From: Botryllus schlosseri
Lineage: Eukaryota
NCBI GenBank assembly: GCA_051294905.1
Contig: CM119371.1
Span: 19,470,001-19,534,000 of the forward strand
Length of the DNA: 64,000 nt
Direction of reading: 5' to 3'
The translations under genes and the position numbers were made by a program. How positions within the stretch are numbered: position 1 is the first letter of the stretch; each line of letters begins with the position of its first letter. Positions 37,738 to 39,850 of this stretch are shown piece by piece. Below the pieces are notes generated by a model. That model had not been told where the DNA came from. It saw nothing but the letters and a program-made list of their open reading frames with translations, and did no database searches.

Positions 37738-38028
37738 ATGGAATTATCACGAGTATCAGCACCTTCGATCACTGAAGAGAAGGATGAAATTATATCCGAA
37801 GCATATTCCTTGACCAGGAATTTTATCATGTACGAACTCGATGGCTCATGCGTTAAGGTAAATACGAAAGCAGAGAGAACCTTACGTCGAGTTGGGGATG
37901 AAATGTTCGAGCGACATCGAACAGTCCTAAACGCAGTCTCCAAACGTCTCCGCTATAGTGATGTTGAAGTCAATGAAAAATATATAAAGAAATATAAAGA
38001 ATATAAAAATATTCCCGCGCGCTCGTAA
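37738..38028 (+). CDS. Truncated Bcl-2/Mcl-1-like ORF (96 aa; BH3 retained, BH1/BH2/TM lost); may be a pseudogene
   Basis: Identical to the first 82 codons of the 39850 gene including TLRRVGDEM, then runs into junction sequence (IKKYKEYKNIPARS*). Confidence 0.55.
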   Translation: MELSRVSAPSITEEKDEIISEAYSLTRNFIMYELDGSCVKVNTKAERTLRRVGDEMFERHRTVLNAVSKRLRYSDVEVNEKYIKKYKEYKNIPARS

Positions 38029-38083
38029 ACCTAACACTTCCTACCCTACCACCTACTACTAAGACGCGCGCGGGAATATTTTT
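38005..38083. repeat. 18-bp perfect inverted repeat at the inner boundary of the left arm
   Basis: AAAAATATTCCCGCGCGC (38005-38022) / GCGCGCGGGAATATTTTT (38066-38083), with a CCTAAC/CCTACC-rich loop. Confidence 0.85.
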
Positions 38084-39065
38084 TATGCTTATACAACGCA
38101 ACGAATACCCATCATACTTTTTAACTCGCTCAGAAATCATACCTTCTTTTACTTTACTAGTAATTTACTGCTACTAAATGTTGAAATGTACTGTTTTCAG
38201 TGGTCTTGATGAGTGGTGCTAGTTTCATCTATATCCTACGACGCATTTTCGCGCTGCAGAATGACTTTTCGCAATAAAAATAACAAAAATACTTCGAGAA
38301 TTTGAGAACTCTCACTGCGCAATATTTGAGTTTTACGAAGTACCCATCAAAGTGAGCCTACATCTTGGATAGTATCCAAAACCACATAAAATTTCGCTCC
38401 GAGCGAAGAATCCTTTAAAATAAGGTAGAAGTAGTCATTTCCGAGTAAGTAAAACGTTAGTACTCTAGGTCCTTCCGATATTTTGATAGTCTCCGTCGTA
38501 CTGTCGGATGTCATGAAATTGTATACATGCCATCTAGTACTACGCAAAATTTCAAGGCTGGTACTCAATGGTTCTGTTAGTAATTATATGGAATGTGTGG
38601 GAAGCGAATTGGAGCGTAAAGTATGCCGTATTTCTATCTATATCGATTTGGAATCCACCAGAAATTGGTTACTGAGCGAAGTATTCTTGCAAAGCAACAG
38701 CATAGGCAATTTTATATTTGTTCGGTATAAACAATATTATTGAACATGATATTTCCACTTGGAGAGAAGACGAAATTTGATGTCGTATAAGGTAGGTTAT
38801 TTTACATTATCGTAAATCTCTGTCACAATACTGCTCGTATTCGAATCAAATTTGACCGGCGGCGTATTCTGAGTAACCCTAACAATTCCCTTACGTAGCT
38901 GTAGAAATTTGAAAAATTAAAAGTATAAAGAAGGTTTTCTTATGGGGCAAATGTTTCGAGTATTCTCAGAAAAACTGTATACATCCTACAGAAAAACGAC
39001 CACGATTAAACGATGAAGAATTATATTGTTAAAATATTACATGAGATAAAACATGCGAACATCCA

Positions 39066-39850
39066 TTATCTTGATAATGTTATTCCAATAGATGTCAGTC
39101 CGATTCCGACAAACACGAGTCCCTTCCAAACTTTATTGTAGTCGAAAGCGGTATTATCAAAGAATTCTACAAAGCCGTCCTGCAATAAAAATAGAAGCCT
39201 TAATGATCATACGGAGGAAAGTTATCGTGTCGTAGAATATAAATTGGGAACCGAATTAGAAGGTAAAGCTGAATTTCATCATCGAGAGGTGATATGGGCT
39301 CTGGAGAGCAGATACACTATATATCTCATGCTAAAGATAATTTGTAAATCCTAAGCAAGGCATGTAAATCACCCACCCATCCTCCATTTCGCACTATCCA
39401 CTTTCGTCTTTTGCTAGCAATGTAATTCCAAACTGTCTGTATGATAGCTTCTATATGCTCCCCGTGATGTTCATTCTCGTTCTTGCGAGCAAGAATGCTA
39501 CCGAGCACAAAAATGGAGACAATCCTCCCCCAGTTTTCTTTGGTATCTTTGAAAATTTCCTCAGCTATCATCAGGAACATTCGCTCATCGGGTAAATATT
39601 CTTTATATTTTTCATTGACTTCAACATCACTATAGCGGAGACGTTTGGAGACTGCGTTTAGGACTGTTCGATGTCGCTCGAACATTTCATCCCCAACTCG
39701 ACGTAAGGTTCTCTCTGCTTTCGTATTTACCTTAACGCATGAGCCATCGAGTTCGTACATGATAAAATTCCTGGTCAAGGAATATGCTTCGGATATAATT
39801 TCATCCTTCTCTTCAGTGATCGAAGGTGCTGATACTCGTGATAATTCCAT
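39066..39850 (-). CDS. MCL1-like: Bcl-2 family anti-apoptotic protein, Mcl-1-like; 2 exons, 195 aa
   Basis: Exon 1 39850-39377; 197-nt phase-0 intron GTGGGT...TTTTATTGCAG exactly at GGW|D, the conserved Bcl-2 family intron site; exon 2 39179-39066 (DGFVEFFDNTAFDYNKVWKGLVFVGIGLTSIGITLSR*). BH3 TLRRVGDEM, BH1 ENWGRIVSIF, BH2 GGWDGFVEFF, C-terminal TM anchor. Confidence 0.93.

Follow-up and report, generated by a model that had tools for sequence, protein, structure and literature searches.

A truncated Bcl-2 reading frame facing its full-length counterpart in a palindromic Maverick-type element of Botryllus schlosseri is probably the scar of a one-sided deletion

The window analyzed here, a stretch of 64,000 nucleotides of the Botryllus schlosseri genome (GCA_051294905.1, contig CM119371.1, positions 19,470,001 to 19,534,000), contains two convergent open reading frames of one Bcl-2 family gene: a 96-aa frame on the + strand (37738..38028) and a full gene of two exons and 195 aa on the - strand (39850-39066). 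This arrangement raises the question of whether the short frame encodes a killer held in check by its full-length partner, whether the pair feeds silencing through double-stranded RNA, or whether the short frame is a by-product of palindrome dynamics. All three possibilities had been put forward in an earlier note on this DNA.

Both frames lie within an 11.6-kb element (33007..44603) bounded by AGTAGT and ACTACT at its outer ends, and direct reading of the sequence shows the target-site duplication CGTTCA flanking it on the left (33001..33006) and on the right (44604..44609). In the portion of the source available, (AGT)2//(ACT)2 termini with a 6-bp target duplication are the definition of a Maverick (PMC8097293), and 33007-44603 carries both, as expected of a Polinton/Maverick-type element. 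Self-comparison of the window found the inverted pair 33007-37991 / 39599-44603 to be 99.2% alike, and pairwise alignment showed 15 substitutions between the arms, a single 22-bp indel and, at their inner end, a gap of 2 bases; the portion of exon 1 that both arms contain has none of the 15 substitutions. The left arm (33007..37984, + strand) mirrors the paired part of the right arm (39604..44603, - strand), and the exact match of the left arm to the intact gene ends at 37984/39604, a point within exon 1. These comparisons bear out the earlier note in its description of an arm symmetry ending within exon 1 and of near-identical upstream regions preceding the two convergent frames. The inner 1.5 kb of the right arm (38084..39603), comprising the 3' region, exon 2, the intron and the 3' half of exon 1, is now partnerless.

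None of the Polinton core genes (pPolB, integrase, ATPase, protease, capsids) was found in the element, where the longest non-Bcl-2 stop-to-stop frame is 124 aa. As no frame outside Bcl-2 exceeds this length, the element is taken to be non-autonomous, and judged by its coding content it behaves like a dependent satellite and not like an autonomous Polinton member. Three other short frames, of 81, 91 and 76 aa, had no Pfam match, and two of them sit within a threefold internal repeat. The Rfam search returned 0 matches across 32500-46500, and the element end had no match among the viral contigs searched.

The intact gene on the right arm is Mcl-1-like. Exon 1 (39850-39377, - strand, 158 codons) encodes helix 1, BH3, BH1 and the start of BH2, and it is followed by a 197-bp GT..AG intron placed after GGW (39376-39180) and by exon 2 (39179-39066), whose 37 codons and stop supply the end of BH2 and a hydrophobic tail. 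Exon 1 matches PF00452 (E 3e-22), and the two exons together encode the full 195-aa protein described in the earlier note. The best solved relatives of exon 1 by sequence were Mcl-1 chains (E 7.4e-12), and its predicted model (pLDDT 83.4) matched the folds of Bcl-xL and Bcl-2, with BOK, BAX and BAK also among the fold matches. The gene combines the Bcl-2 fold, BH3, the NWGR motif of BH1, BH2 and a hydrophobic C-terminal tail, as a multi-domain member of the family does, and its product is a candidate anti-apoptotic protein, the best sequence matches being pro-survival while the fold matches are mixed. A word-based protein search with exon 1 yielded 0 relatives among 29 candidates, and HMMER then gave 266; the closest named relative is bcl-2-like protein 2 of Styela clava, at 50%, which points to an ascidian as the probable host. 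Among 7 candidates from viral contigs, no relative of the protein was found. A metagenome contig (L001) was the only one of 75 candidates to pass, with only a 16-residue match (E 3e-5), and was taken as a chance match.

Of 24 listed sequencing runs, four (X1, X4, X22 and X24) were chosen and aligned to 37300-39600 at 90% likeness, and two of these carry RNA. X22 is a single-cell run, 3% of which was read, with 74 aligned reads (12 of the 74 at least 99% alike); X24 is a bulk run, 6% of which was read, with 93 aligned reads (8 of the 93 at least 99% alike). Both come from other individuals, which probably do not include a carrier of this copy. X24 was not used for strand, its depth being similar in both directions and 92 of its 93 reads fitting only partly. 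Depth in X22 lay on the sense side over the coding bins, with a peak of 21.4 on exon 2, and was 0 from below 38994 to 38840; the full-length RNA ends near 39000. The intron was spliced out in 4 X22 reads, and 6 loose ends of X24 reads fell at 39376. As 20 of 20 X22 reads differ from the window copy at 39080, and 20 of 20 again at 39085, this spliced full-length Bcl-2 RNA comes from other copies of the family.

The 96-aa frame is the same as the full protein through Y82 (residues 1-82), after which 14 new residues, encoded by filler sequence and a hairpin, lead to a stop in the hairpin loop. It keeps the BH3 core (codons L49-M56, 37882..37905, + strand), with LRRVGD starting at L49, and is without NWGR (N106), BH2 and the hydrophobic tail; no Bcl-2 Pfam match was obtained for it. 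The product had been described as BH3-only, and this stands insofar as BH3 is present and BH1, BH2 and TM are absent, but BH3 is not its sole homology region, as the short product also retains the stretches that correspond to helix 1 (residues 11-38) and helix 3 (residues 61-70) in the model of exon 1. Helix 1 of the short product we take to be BH4-like. The core TLRRVGD is identical to that of Mcl-1, and the first hydrophobic BH3 position is occupied by Ala45, followed by Glu46, a position at which BH3-only proteins usually carry a larger hydrophobic residue and a small residue. The BH3 consensus itself is of little predictive value, according to the available text of PMC9171138. The exact 96-aa protein was absent from a collection of 15 billion proteins, and no second copy of the 14-residue tail was found among the proteins searched. 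The only homologue of similar length among 4 candidates, P0001, comes from another copy, follows the intact sequence, has none of the 14 new residues, and stops one residue beyond the break point. A complex prediction for exon 1 with the 96-aa product, in which no alignment was used, gave a score of 0.01 and a mark of 0.34, which is no evidence either way.

At the break, codon 82 of Bcl-2 in the left arm is joined through a 20-nt filler belonging to neither side (37985..38004, + strand) to the left stem of a central hairpin (38005..38083). The last 15 nt of this filler (37990-38004) duplicate 39610-39596, a segment of exon 1 lying across the break, and are overlapped by another repeat, of 10 bases; the filler has the appearance of a templated insertion. 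The hairpin consists of perfect 18-bp stems (38005-38022 / 38066-38083) around a loop of ~40 unpaired bases; its stem is the longest in 37000-40000, and 20 mononucleotide shuffles gave stems of 7-11 bp. X1 is a DNA run with 10451 aligned contigs, and its figures are taken from the listed rows only; at the loop site 38056 its summed depth is 13089, with 31 contigs carrying another letter, so the loop is common to many copies, although summed contig depth in X1 is no copy number and contig sets show presence, not absence. We infer that the hairpin is the true center of symmetry of the element. That the 1.6 kb separating the arms is a native spacer is improbable, because this stretch starts with an 18-bp perfect hairpin whose loop is family-wide. 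An origin by copy-back, with 5-kb arms formed about a native spacer of 1.6 kb, was also considered, and was dropped as the hairpin pointed to a larger palindrome. With the hairpin as the presumed family center, one breakpoint lies at the center of symmetry and the other within an arm.

The short frame is, with good probability, the scar of a one-sided deletion of ~1.5 kb that took place after insertion in a full palindrome carrying a Bcl-2 gene in each arm. This reading is drawn from the junction itself, where filler and short homology fit end-joining repair and the join lands on the central hairpin, and here the by-product alternative in the earlier note is upheld. The parent palindrome would have been symmetric about 38005-38083, with intact Bcl-2 in both arms, and would have suffered a break at or beside its cruciform-prone center, with resection into the left arm. 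Error-prone end joining, of a polymerase-theta-like kind with re-priming, would then have linked exon 1 to the left stem by way of short A/T-rich homology, leaving behind filler copied from exon 1, and the reading frame would have run through another 14 codons before meeting, by chance, a stop codon in the loop. Long palindromes are described in the accessible part of one review as acquiring central asymmetric deletions, which stabilize them (PMC8701086), and templated fillers are given as a mark of polymerase-theta joining, with deletions mostly of 50-200 bp, in the accessible part of another source (PMC4032859). Against the scar reading, a deletion of ~1.5 kb is well above that typical size, P0001, from another copy, stops one residue past the same point, and a frameshift at codon 68 elsewhere in the family also leaves BH3 without BH1.

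The family DNA bears on the timing of this event. At 6 of the 6 sites looked up where this copy has a letter uncommon among family members, that letter stands in both arms, and at the listed arm differences 37413 and 37455 the rare letter is on the left arm in both cases, which fits arms that were equalized while the family spread and drifted apart after insertion. In our reconstruction of the timing and of the enzyme, the deletion probably came after insertion, as did the 15 one-arm substitutions. The junction could instead have been made before insertion, by template switching in Polinton-type copying, in which case the asymmetric form would be a small sub-lineage and the short frame would still be a passenger. 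The filler fits polymerase slippage equally as well as break repair, and P0001 ends beside the same point. However, little X1 depth is left for the junction bases, as the mean of 10925 over the 77 bp of the junction bin is, as a rough sum, near what 65 hairpin bases alone would be expected to give. The absence of the exact 96-aa protein from the 15-billion collection and the tail-less, intact course of P0001 also speak against an earlier origin, and asymmetry would be expected to fade if the arms renew each other in every round. We therefore regard a junction made before insertion as unlikely.

Reads over the unique junction 37985-38028, which the earlier note had named as evidence worth looking for, were sought; among the records listed for X1, X4, X22 and X24, where both RNA runs are from other individuals and X1 may be as well, no read or contig crosses 37985-38004, and the junction is seen in the assembly only. 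Depth in the junction bins was 0/0 in X22 and 0/0.22 in X24 (3% and 6% of the runs, other individuals). The intact-exon joint 37984-39600 is present in at least 8 contigs of X1, in one of X4 and in one read of X22, and X1 depth over exon 1 in the intact direction is 33348 in the bin before the break (37916-37992) and 31465 in the bin after it (39533-39600). The left-arm letter at 37413 is likewise absent from X1, where the other letter accounts for 20590.8 of the 20590.8 depth; X1 may be either another individual or a set from which rare forms were dropped. The lack of crossing records and the missing letter at 37413 would suit an artefact in which a polymerase or an assembler jumped the hairpin of a full palindrome, and palindromes are, in the available part of PMC8701086, difficult for PCR and nanopore sequencing. 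Against such an artefact, the intact target duplication, the 15 real arm differences and the structured two-step filler suit a biological event, and contig sets of this kind register presence and not absence. An artefact of library or assembly is quite unlikely on this evidence.

Read as a toxin-antidote module, the pair would combine an MCL-1S-like 96-aa product that kills cells or offspring with a 195-aa partner whose absence exposes them to it. The BH3 core TLRRVGD is that of Mcl-1, almost the same sequence precedes the short frame and the full gene, and two linked genes do sit on one unit, both frames lying within 33007-44603. However, many intact family copies are held and expressed by individuals that do not carry this one, so the antidote would be theirs too: the full-length spliced transcripts are those of other copies (20 of 20 X22 reads) and intact exon 1 is deep in X1, and the antidote is therefore not private to carriers, whereas drive depends on an antidote missing from non-carriers. 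The promoter region is the same for both genes and nothing suggests that they differ in timing, the tail is built from filler and hairpin, and BH3 begins Ala45-Glu46, unlike the usual BH3-only pattern. An architecture in which BH3 is kept, BH1, BH2 and TM are lost and a basic new tail is gained does resemble that of MCL-1S, as far as the available part of PMC11655658 describes it.

Breaks in the gene also vary across the family. Among the 12 indels listed, coding frameshifts fall at codons 45, 68, 131 and 178, each at 4-7% of depth, and a fifth coding indel, of 3 bases at 37757, is in frame. The frameshift at codon 68 is found in 16 contigs at 7% of depth. Codons 57-105 make up the quarter of the gene in which a break leaves BH3 without BH1, and one of the four listed frameshifts lies there, as chance would give. 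The proposal of an addiction module is not supported, given expressed family copies that supply the antidote (all 20 X22 reads differing at 39080 and at 39085) and breaks at several codons, and we consider a toxin-antidote module here highly improbable.

A silencing role was weighed on the RNA data. In this reading the transcript of the truncated arm would run antisense into the intact gene, fold back on exon 1 and feed small RNAs acting family-wide. The left gene's own 3' region has been removed by the deletion, and X22 has + strand depth of 1.3-4.7 at 38070-38223, the direction that read-through would take, as well as opposite-strand depth of 2.95 in the 5' bin 37685-37761. Those + strand reads, however, belong to other copies or repeats, carrying other letters in 6 of 6 cases at 38149 and in 5 of 6 at 38161, and depth at the loop site 38056 is 0 in both X22 and X24 (167 reads from 3% and 6% of the runs, other individuals). 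In X22, 8 of the 9 coding-region bins counted (37762-37992, 38994-39224, 39379-39600) have an antisense depth of 0, and the ninth, at 0.46, probably reflects the intact-joint read. The sole + strand AATAAA between the two stop codons (38273..38278), a possible end for a short-ORF transcript, is ~700 bases short of the full-length RNA end near 39000, such that normal transcripts would not overlap, and a fold-back on exon 1 would require 1.6 kb of read-through. As any full palindrome of the family could give longer dsRNA, the facing pair is not special in this respect. Silencing by dsRNA from the facing pair is unsupported, and we hold the self-silencing reading to be quite improbable.

Returning to the one-sided deletion, the short frame is most likely a pseudogene, silent or expressed at a low level, and the element has most likely gained stability through the loss of its perfect symmetry. 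By analogy with MCL-1S, the 96-aa product may, if expressed, have a dominant-negative effect. A broader proposal, that one-sided deletions make an MCL-1S-like killer and that some copies spread as a poisoning or silencing sub-lineage, acting as a toxin-antidote pair or as a self-limiting switch, is very unlikely; if the short product were both expressed and toxic, one step would have sufficed to turn a single captured gene into a selfish death switch. On the deletion reading, the junction shows the ordinary fate of a long palindrome, here in a natural element, as a dated snapshot of the decay of a satellite family after insertion, and it supports the view of the small hairpin as the fixed center of the family. 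It also advises caution, as facing pairs of full and short genes in palindromes need not be toxin-antidote modules. The main interest lies in the family, in which an expressed, intron-bearing Mcl-1-like gene has been spread by gene-poor Polinton palindromes. No description of a palindromic Bcl-2 Polinton family or of the facing pair was found in the literature searched, a coverage that did not extend to subscription journals and Repbase.

Among known systems, the element shares its (AGT)2//(ACT)2 ends and 6-bp target duplication with Polintons/Mavericks (adintoviruses) as described in the available portions of PMC8097293 and PMC8502044, and the latter, in a single sentence, names Bcl2 homologues as adintovirus accessory genes. 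In contrast to the short terminal repeats of those elements, the arms here are at least 5 kb; the Bcl-2 gene here is intron-bearing, and no frame of polymerase, integrase or capsid size is present. For the short frame, the earlier comparison with MCL-1S is fair in architecture, the two having in common an N-terminal part with BH3, the loss of BH1, BH2 and TM, a basic new C-terminus and an Mcl-1-like parent, but it is weakened by the retention of helices 1 and 3 and by a BH3 that starts Ala45-Glu46. As the accessible part of PMC11655658 presents it, MCL-1S is a regulated splice form without BH1, BH2 and TM and with a basic new tail, which binds MCL-1L only and kills; its expression, binding and killing have been demonstrated, whereas the 96-aa frame results from a cut at the DNA level in one copy of the element and is known here from its sequence.

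The toxin-antidote pair msft-1/tlpr-1 of C. briggsae, according to the available part of 10.1101/2022.07.12.499685, resembles the present case in that intron-bearing host-type genes became Maverick cargo. The nematode precedent cited in the earlier note is apt to the extent that the toxin, alone of the two genes, descends from such cargo, but the pair itself is located in a MULE. It consists of two unrelated genes, with demonstrated drive and a private antidote, whereas here both frames are one gene whose full-length form is common in the genome.

For the junction, polymerase-theta end joining offers the same combination of short homology and filler taken from beside the break, explained in the accessible part of PMC4032859 by repeated priming, although the enzyme is only presumed here and a similar trace would be left if the helper polymerase of the element had slipped. 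The closest parallel to the event as a whole is center-break revision of a 15.4-kb mouse transgene palindrome, reviewed in the available part of PMC8701086, where deletions are mostly small, whereas the deletion proposed here is ~1.5 kb, cuts a gene, and affects a palindrome that is a naturally occurring mobile element and has a loop of 40 bases. In both, a one-sided deletion from the center would have broken the symmetry of a palindrome, and the deletion proposed here is a new instance of this known process.

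Frameshifted and possibly truncated Bcl-2 reading frames also occur apart from the window's own junction (37985-38004). Among the indels listed for family DNA in run X1, which may come from another individual, 16 contigs carry a 1-base deletion at codon 68 (window 37940), amounting to 3629 of 49926 in depth. This deletion would likewise yield a product with BH3 and without BH1, and it is far commoner in X1 than the window's junction among the matches listed. A protein homologue in ENA, P0001 (82 aa), is near-identical to the window Bcl-2 and ends one residue beyond the left-arm break; the new 14-residue tail is absent from it, and its end can be read either as a contig end or as a separate stop.

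In the bulk RNA run X24, 13-14 reads match exon 2 of the full-length gene at 39103-39135 only, and both sides of the reads diverge beyond this stretch; they probably stem from a Bcl-2 gene more distantly related to this one, which may belong to the host. The ENA proteins P0005 and P0152 represent a relative with 81% identity to exon 1, whose reading frame likewise continues beyond GGW, the last exon-1 residues before the 197-bp intron, so the intron position seems to be shared. This relative may point to another element related to the present one, or to a related species.

ARAGORN predicted a tRNA-Leu(TAA) in each arm (left, 37205-37288, + strand; right, 40300-40383, - strand), putatively either a captured tRNA or a tRNA-derived repeat. 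The Bcl-2 start lies ~450 bp downstream of it in both arms. Window self-comparison showed further, diverged tRNA-like pieces at ~37061-37134, as well as three diverged, ~80% alike copies of a 230-360-bp repeat unit (35238-35465, 35622-35979 and 38115-38471), with two copies per arm and a further one adjoining the central hairpin; short frames within this unit gave no Pfam match. Within 38005-38090, the hairpin itself (38005-38083) is followed by a run of 5-6 T on either strand, so that it resembles a transcription stop in shape.

The same self-comparison revealed two related short palindromic insertions, 44699-45343 (~650 bp) and 22261-22661 (~400 bp), with pieces 93-98% alike, which appear MITE-like. 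The element is enclosed by a stretch, 32642-46073, both ends of which begin CAGTGGTTCT, in inverted order, and resemble hAT/Buster termini.
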